Shown here: piece after piece, positions 3,149 through 34,031 of the stretch
How the letters are laid out: every line of letters starts with the position of its first letter
Numbering within the stretch: the first letter of the stretch is position 1
DNA from: Candidatus Zhuqueibacterota bacterium
Lineage (GTDB): Bacteria > Zhuqueibacterota > Zhuqueibacteria > Residuimicrobiales > Krinioviventaceae
Length of the DNA: 64,000 bases
NCBI GenBank assembly: GCA_016934825.1
Contig: JAFGSB010000158.1
Location: forward strand, 66,842-130,841
Direction of reading: 5' to 3'
Made by a program: the position numbers and the translations under genes
The notes under the pieces: model-generated
What the model was told of the DNA's origin: nothing
Database searches by the model: none
Seen by the model: only the letters and a program-made list of their open reading frames with translations

Positions 3149-5832
3149 TGCAAAATTACAAATTAATTAATCGTGTATTCGCGGGTGTCGCTTTTGTTTT
3201 CTCACTTTTTATTTATTTGAAAACAATAGCGCCAACGGTATCATTTTGGGATTGCGGAGAGTTTATTACCTGTTCCTATATTCTGGGAATACCCCATCCA
3301 CCGGGTGCACCGTTTTATTTATTGATCGGACGAATTTTTACAATGCTGCCGATTGCGGAAGATATTGCATTGCGTGTAAATATCATTTCCGCCCTGTCAT
3401 CGGCGGTCACCGTTATGCTGACATATTTGATTATTGTGCGTCTTGTCAGGCAGTGGCGCGGTGAACCCCGGAATTCCGAAGATATGTTTGTGCTCGTCGC
3501 CAGCGGATTGGTCGGCGCCCTTGCTTTTGCTTTTACCGACACATTCTGGTTCAACGCCGTAGAAGCGGAAGTATATGCCATCAGTATGTTCTTTACATCG
3601 ATCATTGTCTGGCTTATACTTGTCTGGCTTGAAAAAGCGGAAGAACCGGGTTCCGAAAGATATATACTCATCATAGCATACCTGGTCGGTCTGGCAATTG
3701 GCGTGCATTTGCTGATGATCCTTGCGCTCCCCGCCGTTTTTATGATCGTCTATTTTAAATATTTGGACCGGACCGGCCAAAAAATAAATATAACCAACCT
3801 GCTTGTCTTTGGCGGTATAACTCTGGTAATATTTGCGGTGATCTACCCGGGAGTTGTACAGTGGATCCCGAGAATGGCCGGGAAATTTACATTGTGGTCA
3901 TTGTTACTGCTGCTTTTCACCTTACTCATTAGTACGTTCTGGGTTATTTATTTTAAACAGCGGATCGCCAGTCTGGCGTTAATATCTTTACTGCTGGTTA
4001 TATTGGGTTATTCAACATATACAATGATCTATATCCGTTCGGGACTGGATCCGGAAATTGATGAAAATGATCCTGAAACCACCAAACAATTGGTCAGTTA
4101 TCTGAACCGTGAGCAGTACGGAACCTGGAGTACTTTTCCCCGGCGCTTTAAAGGAATGCCCCAGGAGTGGGAATTCAAACAGTTACAGGATTACGGCAGG
4201 GTTCCGAAAAGCCAGGGTTATGCCACTTACCAGTGGGATAAACAGATGGATTTTATGTGGAATTATCAAATTAAAAAGATGTACATTCGCTATTTTCTGT
4301 GGCAGTTTGCCGGCAAGGGTAAAACCATTGGTCAGGACGGATTTATTACGGAAACGATCTCCTTTAACGGGTTGCTGGGCCTGCCCCTGTTCCTTGGTCT
4401 CATTGGTATGGTACATCATTTTTACAGGCATTGGCGGCACGCTTTATCCATCACCGCATTATTGTTACTGACAGGTATAGCAATAGTCATTTATCTGAAT
4501 CAGGAGGATCCGCAGCCGCGGGAGCGTGACTATGTTTTTGTGGGGTCGTTTTTCGCGTTTGCCATCTGGATCGGTATGGGAGTGACGGCCGTGATTGAAA
4601 TGATACAGGAGGCCCTGCATAATAAATCAAAACTTAGGTATCTGCTTTCAGTTGCGGCAAGTGTTTTGTTATTGCTTGCGGTACCCGTGAATTTGCTGGC
4701 AACTAATTATACGGAACATAACAGAACCGGCAATTATGTCGCTTATGATTATTCTTATAATATTTTACAAACGTGTGATGAAAACGGTATATTATTTACA
4801 AACGGAGATAATGATACTTTTCCGTTATGGTTCCTTCAGTATGTTTACGGGGTGCGCAAAGATGTCAGGGTGGTAAACCTGAGTCTTTTGAACACCAACT
4901 GGTACATCAAACAACTTAAGAAAGAAGAACCCAAAGTACCTATATCACTGTCCGATTCAAAGATTGACGAACTGGAAGTAATGGGCTGGAAGGAGCAAAC
5001 GATCACCATTCCTGTTCCGAAGGACGTCAGGGAAAGAGTACTCACAGATCTGGGTGAAGTGAAGGAGTTGATTCCGGAAGAAAGTGACATCCCTGCGGAA
5101 ATCAGTTTTCAGGTCAAACCGACCGTGTATGGCCAGGGTATCCGCGTACAGGACTATATGATTTTGAATATATTGTACGCAAACCGCTGGCAAAAACCGA
5201 TCTATTTTGCCGTTACGGTTTCGAATCAGAACAAGCTGAACCTTGACGATTATCTCAGGATGGATGGTTTGTGTTTTGAAGTGACCCCGGCAGTGGATGA
5301 AGATTTAATGGCAAAAAAGTTACATGAACATTTGTTTGAAACCTTTCAGTTCCGCAGTCTGAATGATCCCGATGTTTATCTGAATGACAATATAAAAGGA
5401 TTATTACAGAATTACCGCGCCGCCTTTTTACGTCTGGCGGATTATTACCGGCGCAAGCAAAATATGCAAAGTATGTTAAGTGTTCTTGACAGGATGGAAA
5501 CGGTGATGCCGGACAGTGTTATCCCGCCGCCGGATATCCGTCTGCCGATTCAAATCGGTTCATTATATGATCTGGCGGGAGAGGCTGATAAATTCATTAA
5601 AAAAGTAGAGTGGGCAGTGAGTTCTGATCCCGACAATGCGTATGCTGTCGGTACCCTGGTCAGTCTTTACAGCAGGGAAGGGGACCATCAAAAAGCCGTC
5701 GCGTTGTTGGAAAAATGGATGCTGACGCATCCCGATGATCCGGAAGCTCGGAATAAACTGGAACAGGAAAAGGCTTTGATGAATGCTGTTCGTGACTCTG
5801 TAAAAGAAACCGATAATAATGTGAATCAGTAA
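3148..5832 (+). CDS. DUF2723/TMEM260-like GT-C fold membrane glycosyltransferase with C-terminal TPR region (candidate protein O-glycosyl/mannosyltransferase)
   Basis: N-terminal FWDCGEFITCSYILGIPHPPGAPFYLL motif typical of DUF2723; about 11 TM helices; soluble C-terminal half with TPR-like helices. Confidence 0.6.
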   Translation: MQNYKLINRVFAGVAFVFSLFIYLKTIAPTVSFWDCGEFITCSYILGIPHPPGAPFYLLIGRIFTMLPIAEDIALRVNIISALSSAVTVMLTYLIIVRLVRQWRGEPRNSEDMFVLVASGLVGALAFAFTDTFWFNAVEAEVYAISMFFTSIIVWLILVWLEKAEEPGSERYILIIAYLVGLAIGVHLLMILALPAVFMIVYFKYLDRTGQKINITNLLVFGGITLVIFAVIYPGVVQWIPRMAGKFTLWSLLLLLFTLLISTFWVIYFKQRIASLALISLLLVILGYSTYTMIYIRSGLDPEIDENDPETTKQLVSYLNREQYGTWSTFPRRFKGMPQEWEFKQLQDYGRVPKSQGYATYQWDKQMDFMWNYQIKKMYIRYFLWQFAGKGKTIGQDGFITETISFNGLLGLPLFLGLIGMVHHFYRHWRHALSITALLLLTGIAIVIYLNQEDPQPRERDYVFVGSFFAFAIWIGMGVTAVIEMIQEALHNKSKLRYLLSVAASVLLLLAVPVNLLATNYTEHNRTGNYVAYDYSYNILQTCDENGILFTNGDNDTFPLWFLQYVYGVRKDVRVVNLSLLNTNWYIKQLKKEEPKVPISLSDSKIDELEVMGWKEQTITIPVPKDVRERVLTDLGEVKELIPEESDIPAEISFQVKPTVYGQGIRVQDYMILNILYANRWQKPIYFAVTVSNQNKLNLDDYLRMDGLCFEVTPAVDEDLMAKKLHEHLFETFQFRSLNDPDVYLNDNIKGLLQNYRAAFLRLADYYRRKQNMQSMLSVLDRMETVMPDSVIPPPDIRLPIQIGSLYDLAGEADKFIKKVEWAVSSDPDNAYAVGTLVSLYSREGDHQKAVALLEKWMLTHPDDPEARNKLEQEKALMNAVRDSVKETDNNVNQ

Positions 5833-6840: not shown

Positions 6841-6880
6841 TCAGGAAAAATACTATTTAATAAAATTCAGGAACAGTGTT

Positions 6881-7939
6881 ATGATAAGAATAAAAAATTT
6901 TAAATTACTATTATCGGTTTTAATTGTTATAATGATCTTTGGAATGGAGTGTGCGCAAAAAGGCCAATCCATGGGATCGCTTCGGAATATTGTCGTGCTT
7001 GCCGATTCACTATTATGGGAACAGGTTGATGATTCCGTTACCCCGATTCTTTCCACAGAAAAATATACACCTCAACCTGAAAAGATTTTTGTGTTGAACA
7101 GAATCGATCCCGGAAGAATCGGAGAATTAAAAAAGTATTCACAAATTTTACTGATCGGTACATTAGACCAGCAGGGGGTCACAAAAAATCTGTTAGATCA
7201 GTTACTGCCGGCCGGTTCAAAAGGCAGGCAGTTGGTCGAAAACAATGAAAGATTCTTTTTCCAGGTAAAAGACCCATGGTCTCGTGAACAGTTGTTAGGT
7301 GTATTAGTGAGTAATGACCTGCCGACGCTTTTGGATAATTTGAAAACGGACAATAAAACGATTTTCGATGCCTTTGATCAACATGTCAATAGCAGGGTTT
7401 TTAACCAGGCTTATTACACATATGAACAAAAGAATATTGAAAAAAAACTGATGAATCAATATGGATGGAGCATCAGGGTGCCCCATGATTATGTAATGAC
7501 GATTGATTCCAGCGCGTCACGGTTTATTTGGCTTCGCCGGACGGGGCCAAACAGACTTATCAGGGATTTGTTTGTCTATTGGGAATCCGTTACTGATCCT
7601 TCATCATTGAGTAAGGAATGGATGCTTGAGAAAATGGCTAAAGTCGCAAAAGAATATTATAAAGGATATTATGTTTATTCAGACAGTTTAATCAAAGTGG
7701 AAGAAGAACTGGTCAACTTTTATGATAATTATTCGATAAAACTGGAGGGTATCTGGCAGGACGATTCCCTGAATGTAGGCGGTCCGTTCAGAAGCTATGC
7801 CTTTTATGATGAAACGGACGGACGTATATATTTACTGGATGGTTCCGTCTGGGCTCCCGAACAAAGAAAATGGCCATTTTTGCGTCAATTAGATATTATA
7901 ATGCAAACTTTTAAAACAAAAGCGCCGGAATCCCATTAA
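6881..7939 (+). CDS. Hypothetical lipoprotein
   Basis: Signal peptide plus lipobox (LIVIMIFGMEC); soluble domain with no recognised motifs. The ORF track starts at 6809 but the internal Met fits the signal peptide better. Confidence 0.45.
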   Translation: MIRIKNFKLLLSVLIVIMIFGMECAQKGQSMGSLRNIVVLADSLLWEQVDDSVTPILSTEKYTPQPEKIFVLNRIDPGRIGELKKYSQILLIGTLDQQGVTKNLLDQLLPAGSKGRQLVENNERFFFQVKDPWSREQLLGVLVSNDLPTLLDNLKTDNKTIFDAFDQHVNSRVFNQAYYTYEQKNIEKKLMNQYGWSIRVPHDYVMTIDSSASRFIWLRRTGPNRLIRDLFVYWESVTDPSSLSKEWMLEKMAKVAKEYYKGYYVYSDSLIKVEEELVNFYDNYSIKLEGIWQDDSLNVGGPFRSYAFYDETDGRIYLLDGSVWAPEQRKWPFLRQLDIIMQTFKTKAPESH

Positions 7940-15201: not shown

Positions 15202-16125
15202 GTGGATAATATGGAACATGATGAATCAAGCAACAATCATAAATATTTACAGGCTGAGGACGAAAAGCTGCAGGAGTTGGAACCGGATAAATCGGCGGTG
15301 AAAGCATATCGCAATGTTAAATTTTTAAACAGCAGCGATGCCCGGACCATCAGAATCATGGCGGAATATCTTGAACCGGCAAGCCGGCTGCGTTTTTATA
15401 ATATTAAAGATACCGTTGTTTTTTACGGTTCTGCCCGAATACTTCCTGCCAATGAAACCGGTGAAGAACTGGAATGGTTAACCGAACAACTCAAAACAGC
15501 GGATAAAAATGCCGCTCCCGAGATCGAGCTGCAACTGAAAACGGCCGAACGTGATGTTAAAATGTCAAAATATTATGAGGAGGCGAGACAGCTTGCCTAT
15601 CAAATCACAAAATGGTCGCTGGACCTGGATGAAAACCAGCGATTTATGGTATGTTCAGGCGGCGGACCGGGTATCATGGAGGCGGCCAACAGGGGCGCTG
15701 CCGAAGCAGGCGGACGGACAATCGGTTTTAACATCAGCCTGCCGAGGGAGCAGCACCCCAATCCGTATATTACCCAAAATCTTTCTTTTGATTTCCATTA
15801 CTTTTTTATGCGGAAATTCTGGTTTGTATATACGGCAAAAGCTCTGGTCGTCTTTCCCGGCGGATTCGGCACCTTTGACGAACTTTTTGAACTGCTGACC
15901 CTTCGGCAGACAAAAAAAGTGGTCAAGCCGCTCAGCGTGATTATTTACGGCAAGGAATACTGGAACAGTATTATTGATTTTAACAAAATGGTGGAATGGG
16001 GTGTAATTAGTGAAAATGATTTGAACCTGTTTCACTTTGTCGATGATGTTGAAGACGCGTTTATCACAATACGAAATCATTTTGAAAAAGAATTTGTCGG
16101 TAAGCGAAAGTACTGGCACTGGTAG
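15202..16125 (+). CDS. LOG family / TIGR00730 Rossmann-fold nucleotide-binding protein
   Basis: GGGPGIMEA and PGGFGTFDELFE signature motifs. Confidence 0.8.
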   Translation: MDNMEHDESSNNHKYLQAEDEKLQELEPDKSAVKAYRNVKFLNSSDARTIRIMAEYLEPASRLRFYNIKDTVVFYGSARILPANETGEELEWLTEQLKTADKNAAPEIELQLKTAERDVKMSKYYEEARQLAYQITKWSLDLDENQRFMVCSGGGPGIMEAANRGAAEAGGRTIGFNISLPREQHPNPYITQNLSFDFHYFFMRKFWFVYTAKALVVFPGGFGTFDELFELLTLRQTKKVVKPLSVIIYGKEYWNSIIDFNKMVEWGVISENDLNLFHFVDDVEDAFITIRNHFEKEFVGKRKYWHW

Positions 16126-16210
16126 ACCGAGGGATTGTGATCTCTTGTTGCAGGTAAATTGCATAGGGGAAATGAATAATCCGTAGATACACGCGGATAG
16201 GGGATGTTTC

Positions 16211-16277
16211 ACGCAGATACCGCGGATGGAGCAGATACAAAAAAACACAACCTCTGTCATTTCGACCGCAGGGAGAA
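16211..16277. repeat. Partial copy (upstream module plus left arm) of a MITE-like inverted-repeat element
   Basis: CGCAGATACCGCGGAT...CTGTCATTTCGACCGCAGGGAGAA is shared with 16585-16652. Confidence 0.6.
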
Positions 16278-16329
16278 TTTTTGAGTATAATTAAGACACA
16301 TACGAATCACTTGCAATAGAACCGGCTAT

Positions 16330-16386
16330 GGAGTGCATCGCCTTTATGCGATGCGGATCAGCCGTCCATAAAAGGACGGCACTCCG
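16330..16386. repeat. Nested double-hairpin element; its first hairpin is repeated at 16414-16438
   Basis: GGAGTGC[GCATCGC-CTTTAT-GCGATGC]...[CCGTCC-ATAAAAGG-ACGG]GCACTCC. GGAGTGTATCGCCTTTATGCGATGC recurs 84 bp downstream. Confidence 0.55.
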
Positions 16387-16584
16387 TGTGTAAAAACTAA
16401 TTCAAGCATTTTTGGAGTGTATCGCCTTTATGCGATGCAGTTATTTGCCACGCAAAAAAACACCCCGGAGCGTGGTCTCAAACATCATTATCTGAATTAT
16501 TACATATCCGGTCGTCGAGTAAGGCTGTCGGGCACAGCGAGACAGCCTGTACCGGGACGTCCGCTGATGTTGGAAAATGTCTCT

Positions 16585-16730
16585 CGCAGATACCGCGGAT
16601 ATCGCAGATACAATAAAAAGACCACTACTGTCATTTCGACCGCAGGGAGAAATCTTAAAATGTTTTACATGAACTGATACCTCTTCAAGAAACAAGATTT
16701 CTCTTCGCTGCGCTCATCGAAATGACAGAG
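16585..16730. repeat. Full MITE-like element with about 35-bp imperfect terminal inverted repeats
   Basis: CTGTCATTTCGACCGCAGGGAGAAATCTT...AAGATTTCTCTTCGCTGCGCTCATCGAAATGACAG; the arms are reverse complements. Confidence 0.65.
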
Positions 16731-16827
16731 TGGGTTATTTGGATGAAATTTTACAAAATAATGGAAATTTATTATTAGGTTCAGATTGTCTAATTACTGT
16801 GCGTACAAACCAGACAAAACGCAAATT

Positions 16828-16930
16828 CTGTCATTTCGACCGCAGGGAGAAATCTTATTATGTTTTACATGAACTGATACCTCTTTAGGAAACAAGAATT
16901 TTCTTCGCTATGCTCATCGTAATGACGGAG
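16828..16930. repeat. Second full copy of the MITE-like inverted-repeat element
   Basis: About 90% identical to 16628-16730 across roughly 100 bp, including both arms. Confidence 0.65.
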
Positions 16931-17220
16931 CGCCGACGACGCCTTGGTCGTGAGTTATTAATAAAAATACCCGGTTCCGTATTTTCAGGAGGTTCAGCGG
17001 TTAAAGTATTTTCCCTGAAAGGGTTGCTCTATTTATACTCAGAACTTTATAATACTTATCACGTTTTATAATGCAAATACTCTACTGATAAATAAAGATG
17101 AAACTTGTATTAAATGCCCTCGTATTTTATTATTGATGTCGATTATATGTTCTTGCCGCATTATACACAAATCCTTATGAATATTAATTCTCTTTTTATC
17201 ATTAAAATGTCAGAGGATAA

Positions 17221-18105
17221 ATGCAAATTTCTATCAACGATTTAACACAGGTATATAAAAATGGCAATCGGGCCCTGCAAAAGATCAACCTGGAAATCAG
17301 CAGCGGGATGTTCGGACTGTTGGGACCGAACGGCGCGGGGAAAACAACATTGATGCGTATCCTGGTTACGCTGATGAAACCCACAGCCGGCGCCGTCAGT
17401 GTTAACGGTTATGATCTGCAAAGAAACCGGCGGGAGATCCGCTCAATGCTCGGGTATTTACCGCAGGATTTTCAAGTTTTATCCAAATTAAAGACCTGGG
17501 AATTTCTGGATTACGTCGCCAGGCTTGCCGGCCTGAGGAGTAAAAATGAACGAAGCGCGGCTGTTGACGAAATGCTGGAAAATGTGGGTCTTTTCGACGC
17601 GCGTGACCGCAGGGCGACAAAATTATCCGGCGGCATGAAAAGAAGACTAGGGATCGCGCAGGCGCTGATCGGTCATCCGCAAATTGTCATCGTGGATGAA
17701 CCGACAACCGGTCTTGACCCGGAAGAACGTATACGGTTCCGCAATCTGCTTGCCGAACTGAGCCGGAAGGACATTGTTATTATTCTGTCCACCCATATAG
17801 TCGGTGATATTTCCAGCACCTGCATGGATATGGCACTGTTGAATAAAGGCGAGGTCATTTTTAATGACGCTCCGGAAAAACTTGTACAGGAATGCAGGGG
17901 ACATGTATGGCAGATTAACGCCCTGGACAGCGAGTTGGAAGCCATCAAAGAGAAATATCCCGTTATTTCAACCATTCCATCGGAGAACGGCTGGGAAGTG
18001 CAGATCGTCGCCGATAAACTGGCGGACTTTAAAGGTGAACAGATTGAACCCAACCTTGAGCACGCCTATGTTTACCGTATGGAATATGGTTTAAATAACA
18101 AATGA
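17221..18105 (+). CDS. ABC transporter ATP-binding protein (ABC-2 subfamily) with a C-terminal accessory domain
   Basis: Walker A LLGPNGAGKTT, signature LSGGMKRRLGIAQAL, Walker B IVIVDEPTTGLD. Confidence 0.9.
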   Translation: MQISINDLTQVYKNGNRALQKINLEISSGMFGLLGPNGAGKTTLMRILVTLMKPTAGAVSVNGYDLQRNRREIRSMLGYLPQDFQVLSKLKTWEFLDYVARLAGLRSKNERSAAVDEMLENVGLFDARDRRATKLSGGMKRRLGIAQALIGHPQIVIVDEPTTGLDPEERIRFRNLLAELSRKDIVIILSTHIVGDISSTCMDMALLNKGEVIFNDAPEKLVQECRGHVWQINALDSELEAIKEKYPVISTIPSENGWEVQIVADKLADFKGEQIEPNLEHAYVYRMEYGLNNK

Positions 18106-18142: not shown

Positions 18143-21100
18143 ATGACATCATTATATAACATTTGGGTTGTTGCCCGTTATGAAACAAAAATATTATTCA
18201 GAAGCTGGTTTTTCAGGGTACTGGCATTGATCGCCATTGGTATTCTGACCTTTCTGAATATCATTTTTTTTTCCGGCGCCGTTAAAGATGTTCCCTGGGT
18301 TTTAAGAGGTGTTCCCTCATCCATTCCATATTTTAATTTGATGATGTTAAATACCGTTCAGGCCGTATTAACTGTATTTTTGGCCTCGGATTTTCTGAAA
18401 CGGGATGTGAAAACCAATACCACAGAAGTCATTTATATGCGTTCCATGTCCAACGCCGAATATGTGCTGGGTAAAACGGGCGGAATATTAAATATATTTA
18501 TTTTACTGAATTTGATCATTTTGTTTATCGGTGCGGTTATCAATATCGCTTTTTCCGATATCGGTTTTCATTTTATCAATTACATTGTCTATTTTCTGCT
18601 TATCAGTATACCCACAATTATTTTTATTACCGGATTTACATATTTAATCATGATAATCATCCGAAATCAGCCGGTTACGCTGGTTTTAATGGTTGGTTAC
18701 ATATCGCTCTCGTTAATCTATTTACAGCATAAAGCAAATTATATATTTGATATCGTTGCCTTTTATCTGCCGTTATCCTATTCCGATTTTGTCGGCTTTG
18801 ATCAAATTTCAATTATACTTTTACAGCGGGGAATGTACCTGTTTATCGGTCTGTCGTTTATATTTTTAACAATTTTGTTTCTGAAAAGACTGCCGCAGTC
18901 AAAAATTATGCTCAGGCTGGCGCCTGTTCTGTCGGTTATTTTTATGATTACGGCAATATACTTTTGTATAACCAGCCTCGGTGTTTACAGGTCCGGTCAA
19001 TCCCTGCGAACCAATATGACGGCATTAAATGACAGGTATATTAATGAGCCGGCGGTTTCGATAACAGATTGTACGCTTGATTTTGAGCATCTGGGCGATA
19101 CTTTTTCCTGCACGGCAAACCTGAAATTCACCAACCGGGATTCCGTTCCCATAAATTCATATATTTTCAGTCTCAATCCCGGGCTTCAACTGGACAAAGT
19201 TTTACAAAATCAGCAGCAAAAGGAATTTGAGCGGCAATATCATATTATTACCATAAAACCGGAAAGGCCTTTAAATCAGGGCGAGTCCGATTCCCTGATT
19301 TTTGTGTACCGGGGCGCTCCCGATGACAACGCCTGTTACCTTGATATTGATGAACAGAAACGAAGCCGGTCGAATTATATTGTCATGTATAAAGCAGGGA
19401 AAAAGTTCAGCTTTATAACTCCCCAATATGTGCTTCTAACCCGGGAAAATTTATGGTATCCGGTTCCCGGTGTTACACATGGTTCACATCTTTACACAAA
19501 TATTAAAAAGGATTTTATTCGTTTCAAATTAAACGTAAAATTAAAGAGTGATCTTCAACCGGTATCCCAGGGTTCAATGGATAAGATGAGTGACCGTGAA
19601 TTCCGGTTTGTGCCGGAAACCCCGCTGCCGCAAATATCATTAATTATTGGAAACTATAAAAAAATATTTACCACGGTTGACAGTATTGATTATAATCTGT
19701 ATACCCTGCCGAAGCATAATTTTTATTCGCCCTATTTCACGCAAATCGGCGATACGTTGAAATCAATCATCAGCGACGCGAAAAGGGAATATGAAACAAA
19801 ACTCAATCTTGATTATCCTTTTAAGCGGTTATCCATTATTGAGGTGCCCGTACATTATATTGCCTATGACCGTCTTGTTTCGTACCACCAGGAAAACGTA
19901 CAACCGGCGCTGGTATTATTCCCGGAGAATGGGGTCAGTGTTCAGCAAGTCGATTTCAGGGCACAAATACACCGATTCGAAAGAATGGAAAGGCGCATGA
20001 ACCAGACCATTGGTGAAAAGGAAATACAGGCCCGGTTGTTCAACATGTTCGTCAATGTTTTTACGGGCGGCGTTCCCATGTTCAATCCAAACAGGAATAT
20101 TTCTGTAAATTTAAATATATTCCCAAATTATTACACTTATAAAAATGTTGTATATTCCCGGGACTGGCCTGTTTTGAACGCATCCCTTGAAGCCTATCTC
20201 AATAGTAAACTGTCGGAATCCACACCCTTTTTCGCAAGAAACTGGCAGGGAATACTGAATGAAGAAAAAGCCAATCTTGCCTTAAAAACCAGCAGTTTGA
20301 ATGAAATACTCTCCAACCCGGACAACAGGGATATTGTTAATGATGTGCTGGAAAACAAAAGTGAAATGTTGTTCAAATTGCTGACATATGTACTGGGTGA
20401 TGAACAATTCAATACATATTTAACACAATATCTCGACCGGAATCGGTTCACTTCCGTGGATTTCCTGGATTTTGTATCCGGTGTGGAGAACAAATTAAAT
20501 TTTAATTTTTATGATTTTATGCAAAAGTGGTACGGTCAAATCCAAATGCCCGGCTATTATATAGCCAATATCCAGTCATATAAAGTTCTGGACGGCAATA
20601 GAACAAGATACCAGATTCGATTTGATGTATCGAATAATGAAGATATCGACGGGTTGATAACGGTCAATTTTCGTACCAGGGGAGGCGGTGTCCGGGGCCG
20701 GTTTATGGGCGGGGGAGGAGCACGCGGCGAATCGGAACCCGAGCGGATTTATTATATTCAAAAAATGCAGACAAAACAAATCGGCATCCTCTTGGATTCA
20801 CAACCGGGAGCCATAATGATCAATTCACTGGTTTCTTTGAACCTGCCATCCGCAATTGATCGTAGATTTGAAGAATTTGATTTAAATGAAAAAGCCGTTC
20901 CTTTTGAAGGGGAAAAAATTCTGGAAAAGCCCGTAATGCTTTCGCTGCCCAATGAAATTATTGTCGATAATGAAGATGAAGGTTTTACGGTACAGGCGCA
21001 GGATGAGACAAGTCTTTTGAAAAAAATATTCAAAATGAGCAACGGTGATAAAGAAGAATATGTCGGCTTGAATATGTGGCGCGTGCCGAACAACTGGAGC

Positions 21101-21496
21101 AAGACAATTCATTCCGATTTTTATGGGCGCTATGTCCATTCCGCATATTATGTAAAGTCCGGCAATGGTTCCAAAGTGGTAACATGGAATGCCAATATTC
21201 CGGAGAGCGGCCAATATGATGTTTATTGTTATGCAAACACGATTCAGTTCCGGGGAGGACCGGGAAGAGGACGAGGAAGGGGAAGAGAAAGACAACCCAT
21301 GGCGGGCGAAATGCATTATGACGTATATCATGATGACGGTCAGGAAGAAGTGACGCTGGATATCCAATCGGCGCAGGAAGGATGGAATTTTTTAGGAACC
21401 TACTATTTGTCGGCAGGCACTGCCCAGGTCCGGTTATCGGATAAATCAAACGCACGAATGGTCGTTGCCGACGCTGTCAAGTGGGTAAAGCATTAA
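18143..21496 (+). CDS. ABC-2 family permease fused to a large M1-aminopeptidase-like extracytoplasmic domain (no HEXXH zinc motif found)
   Basis: N-terminal 300-aa multi-TM ABC-2-like region, then about 800 aa containing the M1-like segment LTYVLGDEQFNTYLTQYLDRNRFTSVDFLDFV. Two Gly/Arg-rich low-complexity inserts (GGGVRGRFMGGGGARG and GGPGRGRGRGRER). Confidence 0.7.
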   Translation: MTSLYNIWVVARYETKILFRSWFFRVLALIAIGILTFLNIIFFSGAVKDVPWVLRGVPSSIPYFNLMMLNTVQAVLTVFLASDFLKRDVKTNTTEVIYMRSMSNAEYVLGKTGGILNIFILLNLIILFIGAVINIAFSDIGFHFINYIVYFLLISIPTIIFITGFTYLIMIIIRNQPVTLVLMVGYISLSLIYLQHKANYIFDIVAFYLPLSYSDFVGFDQISIILLQRGMYLFIGLSFIFLTILFLKRLPQSKIMLRLAPVLSVIFMITAIYFCITSLGVYRSGQSLRTNMTALNDRYINEPAVSITDCTLDFEHLGDTFSCTANLKFTNRDSVPINSYIFSLNPGLQLDKVLQNQQQKEFERQYHIITIKPERPLNQGESDSLIFVYRGAPDDNACYLDIDEQKRSRSNYIVMYKAGKKFSFITPQYVLLTRENLWYPVPGVTHGSHLYTNIKKDFIRFKLNVKLKSDLQPVSQGSMDKMSDREFRFVPETPLPQISLIIGNYKKIFTTVDSIDYNLYTLPKHNFYSPYFTQIGDTLKSIISDAKREYETKLNLDYPFKRLSIIEVPVHYIAYDRLVSYHQENVQPALVLFPENGVSVQQVDFRAQIHRFERMERRMNQTIGEKEIQARLFNMFVNVFTGGVPMFNPNRNISVNLNIFPNYYTYKNVVYSRDWPVLNASLEAYLNSKLSESTPFFARNWQGILNEEKANLALKTSSLNEILSNPDNRDIVNDVLENKSEMLFKLLTYVLGDEQFNTYLTQYLDRNRFTSVDFLDFVSGVENKLNFNFYDFMQKWYGQIQMPGYYIANIQSYKVLDGNRTRYQIRFDVSNNEDIDGLITVNFRTRGGGVRGRFMGGGGARGESEPERIYYIQKMQTKQIGILLDSQPGAIMINSLVSLNLPSAIDRRFEEFDLNEKAVPFEGEKILEKPVMLSLPNEIIVDNEDEGFTVQAQDETSLLKKIFKMSNGDKEEYVGLNMWRVPNNWSKTIHSDFYGRYVHSAYYVKSGNGSKVVTWNANIPESGQYDVYCYANTIQFRGGPGRGRGRGRERQPMAGEMHYDVYHDDGQEEVTLDIQSAQEGWNFLGTYYLSAGTAQVRLSDKSNARMVVADAVKWVKH

Positions 21497-33584: not shown

Positions 33585-33765
33585 TGTTTTTCTCCAAATG
33601 TCTTAATAATGTAATCTTTGTTCTTTAATAAATTTTTTACTGCTTTTTTGTTTTTTGGAAATCAATTTTTCATTTAAACCATTTATTTCAATATTTTATT
33701 TCAAAAATAATATAAACTGTTTGCAAAATTAAGAAAAAATGACTATAATATCCTGAATATAGTTG

Positions 33766-33940
33766 AATAGAGGCGCCTTTTGCAAGAGTAAACACATCAA
33801 AGGATAAGCGTATCTGTTAAAGATGTGTTAAAAGGGCAACAGGCCGAAATAGTTCCGATACGCTTTAAGGAGCTATTGGGACGGTATGTGAACAACTACC
33901 GTACTGTCACGGAAAAAAATCCGTGGAGCGCTATTTATTA
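33766..33940 (+). ncRNA. Lysine riboswitch (L-box) aptamer
   Basis: Starts with AGAGGCGCC (P1 5' strand). Conserved AAAGGGCAACAGGCCGAA core and 3' ACUGUCACGGAAAAAAAUCCGUGGAGCGCUAU, paralleling the B. subtilis lysC leader (GCUGUCAAGAAA...UUGGAGGGCUAU). A T-run follows at 34003-34012; lysine genes lie downstream. Confidence 0.7.
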
Positions 33941-34031
33941 AACATGCTGATTAATAGAAAAACAGTAGGTTGATTGAAAAGGGCGCCCCGATTCTTTCGA
34001 CCTTTTTTTTTGTTTATTTCGTTTGTTAATT

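Follow-up and report, generated by a model that had tools for sequence, protein, structure and literature searches.

TGTC-tagged hairpin repeats, probably Ssn-related, in the gene-free spacer upstream of an ABC-transporter operon in an uncultured Zhuqueibacterota bacterium

Introduction

What fills the 1.1 kb of gene-free DNA that separates a LOG-family gene from an ABC-transporter operon in Candidatus Zhuqueibacterota bacterium (contig JAFGSB010000158.1), and does it take part in the control of that operon? The stretch in question (16126–17220) is a non-coding spacer of 1095 nt; all coordinates refer to the window, i.e., the whole 64,000-nt stretch of DNA that was analysed. A preliminary description, made from the letters alone, had read the spacer either as a graveyard of miniature inverted-repeat transposable elements (MITEs) or as a structured non-coding RNA (ncRNA) or regulatory region controlling the operon that starts at 17221. 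We conclude that the spacer is quite probably an intergenic dumping ground for small repeats, whose main tenants are TGTC-tagged hairpin repeats, arranged as two tag-outward pairs and one solo arm, which belong to the superfamily of repetitive extragenic palindromes (REPs) with a CGTC tag and are related to the motifs that accompany Ssn, a GIY-YIG nuclease acting on single-stranded DNA (ssDNA). This gives an identity to a puzzling stretch of an uncultured candidate-phylum genome, through a partner enzyme that was characterised only in 2025.

Arms and dimers in the spacer

The repeated unit is a 29-mer, CTGTCATTTCGACCGCAGGGAGAAATCTT, which is present exactly at 16628 and 16828 and with two mismatches (27/29) at 16254; no further copy was found in the 64-kb window, where 100 shuffles expect 0. 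The unit, called an arm below, is built from a TGTC tag, 5 bp, a tandem G·A mismatch, 2 bp, a GNA triloop and an unpaired C. The window contains five arms, four of them tagged TGTC and one (16894–16928, decayed) tagged CGTC; together with the sequences between paired arms, these are:

16254–16282, + strand: solo arm, TGTC-tagged and decayed, with GAATT in place of GAAAT as its 3′ stem half; it no longer folds as an arm hairpin
16628–16656, + strand: left arm of dimer 1, the exact 29-mer (TGTC, ATTTC, GA, CC, GCA, GG, GA, GAAAT, C, TT)
16657–16693, + strand: inner spacer of dimer 1, 37 nt, starting with AAAATG, conserved in dimer 2 and in the dimer of the relative contig L120
16694–16728, − strand: right arm of dimer 1, a long-loop variant found by inverted-repeat search (reverse complement CTGTCATTTCGATGAGCGCAGCGAAGAGAAATCTT)
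16828–16856, + strand: left arm of dimer 2, the exact 29-mer
16857–16893, + strand: inner spacer of dimer 2, 37 nt, part of a direct repeat with 87% identity to dimer 1
16894–16928, − strand: right arm of dimer 2, decayed, with a CGTC tag and stem mismatches

The MITE-like inverted-repeat elements noted earlier are real, and every repeat listed at that time is present in the sequence, with some corrections to their anatomy. The two full elements, which are 87% identical over 115 nt and 200 nt apart, start at 16628 and 16828 as first given and end at 16728 and 16928 rather than at 16730 and 16930. Their inverted pairing also stands, while the ~35-bp terminal inverted repeats (TIRs) ascribed to them are not copies of one length; the right arm, which has the longer loop, measures 35 nt compared to 29 nt in the left arm, and the two are variants of one unit, so that each element is a heterodimer with terminal repeats that are imperfect by construction. 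The third copy, formerly placed at 16254–16277 and regarded as truncated, is a nearly full arm (16254–16282) with a decayed 3′ stem half. Dimer 1 folds strongly as DNA (−24 kcal/mol, z = −6.2), and dimer 2 reaches just −12.9 kcal/mol (z = −2.0). Local segmental duplication clearly contributed to the repeats here, as 16204–16282 resembles 16577–16656 (an 80-nt module plus arm) and dimer 1 resembles dimer 2.

Conservation of pairing and flanks

Covariation was assessed in 69 distinct 28-nt arms that were collected with a pattern anchored on non-stem positions alone. In these arms, 96.1% of cells were paired (24–60% in slid controls) and 59 cells had changed on both sides, compared to 14.3 ± 2.8 in shuffles, none of which (0/500) reached 59; these arms are related repeats and the counts are thus not counts of independent events. 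Changes on both sides were found at 6/7 pairs, one-sided changes numbered just 7, and G·U was rare among the covarying pairs. The small number of one-sided changes fits a constraint at the DNA level, or a constraint on both strands. A tandem G·A mismatch and a GNA triloop, as in the d(GCGAAGC)-type mini-hairpin, are characteristic of DNA hairpins of high stability; together with the scarcity of G·U, the presence of both in the arms fits a DNA hairpin better than an RNA hairpin.

The unpaired positions next to the stem hardly vary. Among 315 distinct hairpins picked by the stem alone, T, G, T and C at positions −4 to −1 were each present in 96–98%, and the same 315 hairpins (second locus set) had C at +1 in 313/315 (99%), T at +2 in 88% and T at +3 in 84%. 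In Neisseria, the NTS repeat (CGTCATTCCCGCGMAVGCGGGAATCYRG) is bound, as ssDNA only and on one strand only, by SsnA, a 94-aa endonuclease with GIY-YIG as its single domain, which cleaves a few nt upstream and does not bind the RNA form of the site (Chenal et al. 2025, Nat Commun 16:2388, PMC11893778). The three nt 5′ of the NTS palindrome are important for cutting, and binding depends most on the C directly 3′ of it; the near-invariant 5′ TGTC and 3′ C flanks of the present hairpins are at the positions reported as critical for cleavage and binding by SsnA (PMC11893778).

Distribution and pairing in other genomes

The exact 29-mer was found at at least 117 loci in ~45 assemblies, which represent at least 8 phyla and contain up to 13 loci each; these counts are of the matches listed in a scan of a species-representative genome collection and are lower bounds. 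Luteimonas marina FR1330 has at least 12 loci and a metagenome-assembled genome (MAG) of Thermodesulfobacteriota at least 13; other hosts include Mucilaginibacter, Sphingobacteriaceae, Microscillaceae, Ignavibacteria, Binatia, Dadabacteria, three orders of Chloroflexota, two Planctomycetota, and several Gamma- and Betaproteobacteria. The repeat hence also exists outside this locus. In a short-read assembly of the same genome (a Logan contig), a break falls inside the second element, the contig starting at 16831 of the window, in the left arm of dimer 2; this suggests further copies of the repeat elsewhere in that genome. A BLAST search of plasmids and phages with the element gave no match, the arm was found in only 9 of 2.9 million viral contigs, and a literature search with the repeat sequence as a string matched only primers.

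Most arms are paired. Of 106 arms with enough flanking sequence, 74 (~70%) had a tag-outward partner within 170 nt, three had a tag-inward partner only, and 29 were solo; spacers varied between genomes. Partner arms often had other stems (ATCCC/GGGAT, ATCTC/GAGAT, or ATTCC/GGAAT), and pairing is therefore preserved within an arm, not between arms. Clustering of the open reading frames (ORFs) within 1.5 kb of the 117 matches listed revealed no recurrent protein family beside the arms; just repeat-derived pseudo-ORFs clustered.

Two further arrangements were observed around the arms. Tandem half-arm arrays (e.g., CTGTCATTTCGACCGC plus 4–6 nt, repeated 2–5 times with a period of ~20–23 nt) adjoin a full arm on its outer side and share its orientation at 16/106 arms from several phyla, including a Planktothrix plasmid (e.g., L003 ~6870–7110, L112 ~3570–3640 on the − strand, L216 712–810, and 13 others); we found no published description of such arrays, which may have been left by successive rounds of cleavage and repair or by hairpin slippage. 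At Desulfobacterota loci (L006, L009, L010, L011, L083, and similar), the arm pair occupies the middle of a larger palindrome (...TTGATGCGTTSGTAAAAAGTCC ... GGACTTTTTACGAGTTCATCAA...), which may be the target of the pair or may form a composite element with it.

Association with a GIY-YIG nuclease gene

The link between the arms and a nuclease originated from a single locus, L033, plus the literature. This locus, from a deltaproteobacterial MAG, contains a 95-aa single-domain GIY-YIG gene (PF01541 at 3.9e-15) that is immediately preceded by the exact 29-mer and followed, right behind its stop codon, by an inverted arm. The spacing of its Y8, Y19 and E66, counted from the translation, equals that of the catalytic Y6, Y17 and E64 in SsnA (Ssn clade, CDD cd10448), and bacterial ssn homologs have been described as flanked by Ssn-related motifs (SRM) in an arm-gene-arm layout like that of an insertion sequence (PMC11893778). 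A metagenome scan with the L033 protein yielded 80 independent loci (L126–L205, 63–98% identity), and the bracketing of the gene by arms was tested in these genomes, not in that of the window: an arm head was located within 150 nt upstream of the GIY-YIG gene at 59/74 loci, an inverted arm head within 150 nt downstream at 59/75, and both at 48/72. The upstream arm typically ends in ...GAGAAATCTTAAATG, ~1–3 nt before the start codon, which follows the arm tail directly, and the downstream arm starts at the stop codon, as in TGGTAAAGATTTCTC...

Both arm types of the window recur at such loci. L033/L126 and L204 carry the identical sequence of the left arm of dimer 1 ahead of their GIY-YIG genes, and the right arm of dimer 1 shows a 94% match to arms in the ssn-bearing loci L167 and L168. 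The dimers of the window have the same ends and orientation as the arm-gene-arm cassettes, with a 37-nt spacer in the place of the gene; these spacers retain an ATG followed by a 5-codon frame, and their AAAATG start is the arm-tail/start-codon context of the ssn cassettes. Beyond the arm tail, no similarity was found between the 37-nt spacer and the ssn cassettes. Tetranucleotide composition assigned none of the ssn-bearing contigs to the window's lineage; the best, L166, reached r = 0.90, compared to 0.93–0.97 for true relatives.

Some ssn loci present features of their own. In L126–L205, the 3′ stem half GGGAGA and the tail AATCTTAA stand directly before the ATG of ssn; GGGAGA would occupy the ribosome-binding-site position of ssn and the tail that of the following spacer, and a hairpin there in the mRNA might occlude initiation of ssn translation. 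L166 has its ssn cassette with arms (371–718) between the genes for the large and the B12-binding subunit of a methylmalonyl-CoA-mutase-like operon, followed by genes for a MeaB-like GTPase and an adenosyltransferase (read from ORF translations). L216 (Planktothrix agardhii plasmid p1, NZ_LR882964.1, 18847–19131) has an Ssn-like gene with arms that is flanked by an MmeI-type restriction-modification gene on one side and by drmA, the helicase gene of DISARM, on the other; this cassette thus lies inside a defence island.

Turnover among relatives and the conserved region before the operon

The genes and the region on either side of the repeats are as follows:

15202–16125: LOG/SLOG-family gene, the upstream neighbour of the spacer; an exact look-up of its protein gave no record
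16972–17220, + strand: promoter-proximal region of the ABC operon, outside the repeats and the sole part of the spacer that can be aligned in all five relatives
17221–18105: ABC-ATPase gene, the downstream neighbour of the spacer and first gene of the ABC-transporter operon

After the ABC ATPase, the operon continues with a 1117-aa protein and an outer-membrane efflux protein. Homologs of the ATPase are listed under candidate division KSB1, Calditrichaeota and Zhuqueibacterota, which places the source among uncultured bacteria of these groups. Contigs with ATPases 96%, 92%, 90% and 82% identical to that of the window have the same gene order, and the spacer, 1095 nt in the window, measures 758 nt in the 92% relative, 831 nt in the 90% relative, and 330 nt in the 82% relative; the contig of the 96% relative (L119; MAG GCA_976565245.1) begins inside the spacer. 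L119 lacks a 348-nt block that carries both dimers; it contains a solo arm within 60 nt of extra DNA inserted at window position 16475/16476. In the 92% relative, a single dimer of the same sub-family, its spacer similar, is accompanied by a solo end; the arm of the 90% relative is of another variant, CTGTCATTCCCGCGAAAGCGGGAATCC; and the 82% relative has no arms. Because repeat content differs among close relatives that keep synteny, the arms appear, judging from these alignments, to be recent and variable passengers rather than conserved regulatory sequence.

The part of the spacer that is conserved is the last ~190–250 nt before the start codon of the ABC gene. Invariant blocks in all five relatives (~17030–17220) include CAGAACTT, ACGTTTTA, ATGAAAC..GTA, CGTA, and the ribosome-binding site AGAGGA, and these blocks are probably the real promoter or operator of the ABC operon. 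Within this region, GAACTTTATA and AAACTTGTAT form an apparent direct repeat ~56 nt apart, and ACGTTTTAT is near-complementary to ATGAAAC. The consensus RNA fold of the conserved region is negligible (−3.5 kcal/mol). The idea of a structured ncRNA or regulatory region controlling the operon at 17221 finds no support, given that no Rfam family reaches its threshold in the spacer, the repeats vary in relatives, and the conserved part has no convincing consensus fold; for annotation, the repeats should not be taken as part of the control region of the ABC operon.

Other features of the spacer and the window

That the 1.1-kb region is free of genes was confirmed. The short ORFs of the spacer have no Pfam match and are not conserved in relatives, because the underlying DNA is missing or different there; none of them proved to be a conserved protein. 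The Rfam scan proposed in the preliminary description was run in E-value mode on the region, and the best spacer match reached 21.9 bits, compared to a threshold of 60. Promoter and terminator scans of the spacer gave numbers of sites not above those in shuffles. Several smaller repeats share the spacer with the arms:

16204–16245, + strand: CGCRGATA short tandem module, copy 1, with A-rich tail, directly 5′ of the solo arm
16330–16385, no strand assigned: Y-shaped double hairpin without relation to the TGTC arms (−18.3 kcal/mol when folded as DNA, z = −4.8)
16413–16438, no strand assigned: the double hairpin's first hairpin in a second, partial copy, 26 nt, 96% identical to 16329–16354 and 84 nt downstream of it
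16522–16548, no strand assigned: GGCTGTC-GG-GC-ACA-GC-GA-GACAGCC hairpin, likewise without relation to the TGTC arms (−8.9 kcal/mol when folded as DNA, z = −3.9)
16577–16618, + strand: CGCRGATA module, copy 2, with A-rich tail, directly 5′ of dimer 1, 86% identical to copy 1; present in L119 though the dimers are absent
16612–16623, + strand: AATAAAAAGACC, copy 1 of a 12-nt direct repeat found on both sides of the 348-nt block that L119 lacks
16960–16971, + strand: AATAAAAATACC, copy 2 of the 12-nt direct repeat, bracketing the same block

The duplicated module upstream of the elements, the nested double hairpin with its partial repeat, and the GGCTGTC...GACAGCC hairpin had all been noticed before and are all found at these positions. 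In L122/L123 a CGCRGATA-type module comes after the LOG stop codon, and in L120 one stands before the dimer; as it is present in relatives without arms, the module seems from its distribution to be older at this locus than the arms. Tandem repeats of CGCRGATA(N1–3) occur in the window (16181–16245 and 16577–16618) and in L119 (193–230), L120 (4358–4390), L122 (2445–2530), and L188 (821 and 900), i.e., at the same site after the LOG stop in several relatives and on an unrelated metagenome contig (L188), and seem to be a small-repeat family in their own right. The double hairpin at 16330 has a first hairpin that was absent from all fetched loci and viral contigs and was thus seen in the window only; the terminator scan marked a single site, the partial copy of this hairpin (16413–16438), which does not exceed the number in shuffles. 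In L119, the stem of the 16522–16548 hairpin is kept while two non-stem positions differ. L119 also has a single AATAAAAAAAC where the window has the block bracketed by the 12-nt repeat, and this repeat, AATAAAAAKACC, is a candidate target duplication of the two-dimer block.

Outside the spacer, the second gene of the operon (18143–21496) encodes the 1117-aa protein, which has a weak M1-peptidase match and a C-terminal Golvesin_C domain and is an unusual partner for an ABC ATPase, placed as it is between the ATPase and the outer-membrane factor. A lysine riboswitch aptamer at 33760–33941 (+ strand; 114 bits, gathering threshold 30) is the sole Rfam match of the whole window.

Proposed explanation and alternatives

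By analogy with NTS and SsnA of Neisseria, we propose that the arms would fold when the DNA is single-stranded, i.e., during replication, transformation or conjugation, and that a cognate Ssn would bind the arm on the strand reading 5′-TGTC and cut a few nt upstream. In a tag-outward pair, each strand has one forward arm, so that cuts are predicted at the two outer borders. Pairs without a gene may, on the same analogy, be miniature derivatives of an arm-ssn-arm cassette, and pairs may spread or get lost via Ssn activity or via recombination at the hairpins. They would have no cis-regulatory role for the ABC operon, the conserved control region of which would lie 3′ of them.

Several points weigh against reading the spacer's tenants as Ssn-related CGTC-REPs. 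Neither the 64-kb window nor the relatives' syntenic contigs (L118–L125) contained an ssn homolog, and the indel boundaries relative to L119 are fuzzy, such that gain in the window and loss in L119 fit alike. The action of Ssn is known by assay for SsnA and NTS of Neisseria and is extended to the present arm type by analogy. The five window arms need 3–4 substitutions to match the published SRM pattern (HGTCWYN(0-2)YYVSBRHN(0-5)WNVSBRGN(0-2)RNCYNB), which the NTS control matches with 0; they miss it because their stem is AT-rich and interrupted by G·A. The arms also have a CTT tail in place of ~CCA, and a loop of 3 nt, or of at least 13 nt in the long-loop right arms, in place of 4–5 nt.

Going beyond the Ssn-related reading, the arm-ssn-arm cassette may be an active mobile element that spreads horizontally with a GIY-YIG ssDNA nuclease instead of a transposase, the pairs of the window being its miniature, non-autonomous derivatives; we hold this to be a tentative possibility. 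The identical 29-mer in at least 8 phyla and the turnover between genomes related at the 96% level would fit it, as would the ribosome-binding site and start codon of ssn set in an arm-tail context that the window's inner spacers keep, and the half-arm arrays. More broadly, a 29-mer common to at least 8 phyla argues for horizontal spread or for very tight co-evolution with the nuclease, and gene-less pairs that look like MITE-type derivatives of a nuclease cassette bear on how such repeats multiply. The pairs could conversely be orphan relics of a past invasion, inert and without a nuclease, that change only by local duplication and deletion, which we consider unlikely. One dimer and the solo arm have decayed, 16204–16282 and 16577–16656 as well as dimers 1 and 2 look like local segmental duplicates, and the window has no ssn, all in line with relics; yet two arms are identical to the cross-phylum consensus 29-mer, the assembly break at a repeat suggests more copies in the genome, and 81% of genomes with >200 such motifs encode Ssn (PMC11893778).

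If the arms were classical MITEs, their ~30-bp TIRs would bind a DDE transposase encoded elsewhere, and the elements would move by cut-and-paste with target-site duplication. The inverted-repeat layout, the length of ~100 bp, the multicopy state, the differences in presence among relatives, and the 12-nt direct repeat that brackets the two-dimer block all agree with such elements. On the other hand, no duplication directly flanks either dimer or the perfect palindromic copies in other genomes, arms occur singly and in heteropairs with differing stems and loops, covariation keeps the pairing within an arm rather than between arms, no transposase or other protein family recurs near arms among the 117 matches listed, and the sole gene repeatedly bounded by arms encodes the 95-aa GIY-YIG protein; we regard classical MITEs as very unlikely. 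Of the MITE graveyard first envisaged, the non-autonomous MITE-like units and the decay of one dimer and of the solo arm survive, whereas TIRs of the classical transposase-binding kind do not, each arm being an independent hairpin. Even less credit, close to none, is given to REPIN-type elements mobilised by RAYT (REP-associated tyrosine transposase, IS200/IS605 family). Tagged hairpins in inverted, intergenic, multicopy pairs are what such elements would look like, but the tag is TGTC/CGTC rather than GTAG, no gene resembling a Y1 transposase recurs beside arms among the 117 matches listed, and repeats of the CGTC type were never found with RAYT genes in a published survey (PMC3733652).

A role at the RNA level, in which transcripts of the LOG gene or of the ABC leader would include the arms and these would serve as terminators, stabilisers of mRNA or a regulatory ncRNA for the operon, is distinctly improbable, even though the arms lie between unidirectional genes and downstream of an ORF, like many REPs (PMC3733652), and the dimers fold strongly. 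There is no Rfam match, no U-tract follows the arms, terminator sites do not exceed those in shuffles, and close relatives that retain both genes have no arms or different ones. G·U pairs are rare, and the G·A mismatches and GNA triloops are those generally seen in DNA hairpins. SsnA, moreover, does not bind its site as RNA (PMC11893778).

Comparison with known repeat classes

Outwardly, the pairs resemble MITEs such as the Correia element of Neisseria, with which they share a length of ~100 bp, terminal inverted repeats, intergenic location and multiple copies. The present elements differ in having no target-site duplication of their own and in ends that fold on themselves and also occur singly, and no DDE transposase parent is known for them. 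The likeness extends further to REPINs and bacterial interspersed mosaic elements with their RAYTs, which are likewise tagged hairpins in inverted, non-autonomous pairs tied to a single-copy nuclease gene flanked by the same repeats; there, however, a GTAG tag goes with an HUH Y1 transposase, whereas TGTC goes with GIY-YIG here, and REPINs are lineage-specific and vertically inherited, while the 29-mer is identical across phyla.

The CGTC-tagged REP superfamily (with TGTC and CCTC variants) was defined by Di Nocera et al. (2013, PMC3733652) and includes dRS3 of Neisseria and RPE-4/RPE-6 of Rickettsia. Its members have stems of 8–9 bp that start with A/T, a loop of 4–5 nt and a tail of ~CCA, and mostly form head-to-head dimers (tags outside) with spacers of 20–100 nt that are conserved inside each family, tail-to-tail dimers being rare; they have no dedicated transposase, and the survey never found them associated with RAYT genes (PMC3733652). 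The present arms agree in the unpaired CGTC/TGTC tag, the frequency of heterodimers, the predominance of tag-outward dimers (74 head-to-head, 3 tail-to-tail only, and 29 solo of 106), window spacers that at 37 nt fall within 20–100 nt, and the lack of an adjacent dedicated transposase. Their stem resembles that of the superfamily in part, with nine positions beginning A-T, T-A but G·A mismatches at positions 6–7. They differ in tail and loop, and they occur in phyla beyond the five of the survey.

With SRM and NTS, the arms share the form of an oriented hairpin repeat with (C/T)GTC 5′ of a palindrome starting with AT and a C directly 3′, the occurrence of hundreds of intergenic copies in some genomes, a wide phylogenetic spread, and the bracketing of a ~95-aa single-domain GIY-YIG gene by inverted repeats. 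They differ in the AT-rich stem with tandem G·A mismatch and GNA triloop, where NTS has a perfect, GC-rich stem of 8 bp, and in the host, here an uncultured KSB1/Calditrichota-like bacterium. As the published SRM pattern misses this abundant G·A-interrupted arm type, published motif counts are likely to be underestimates. Taken on their sequence, the window arms would thus represent a variant of the SRM/CGTC-REP class that lies outside the published SRM pattern, rather than a textbook member of that class.

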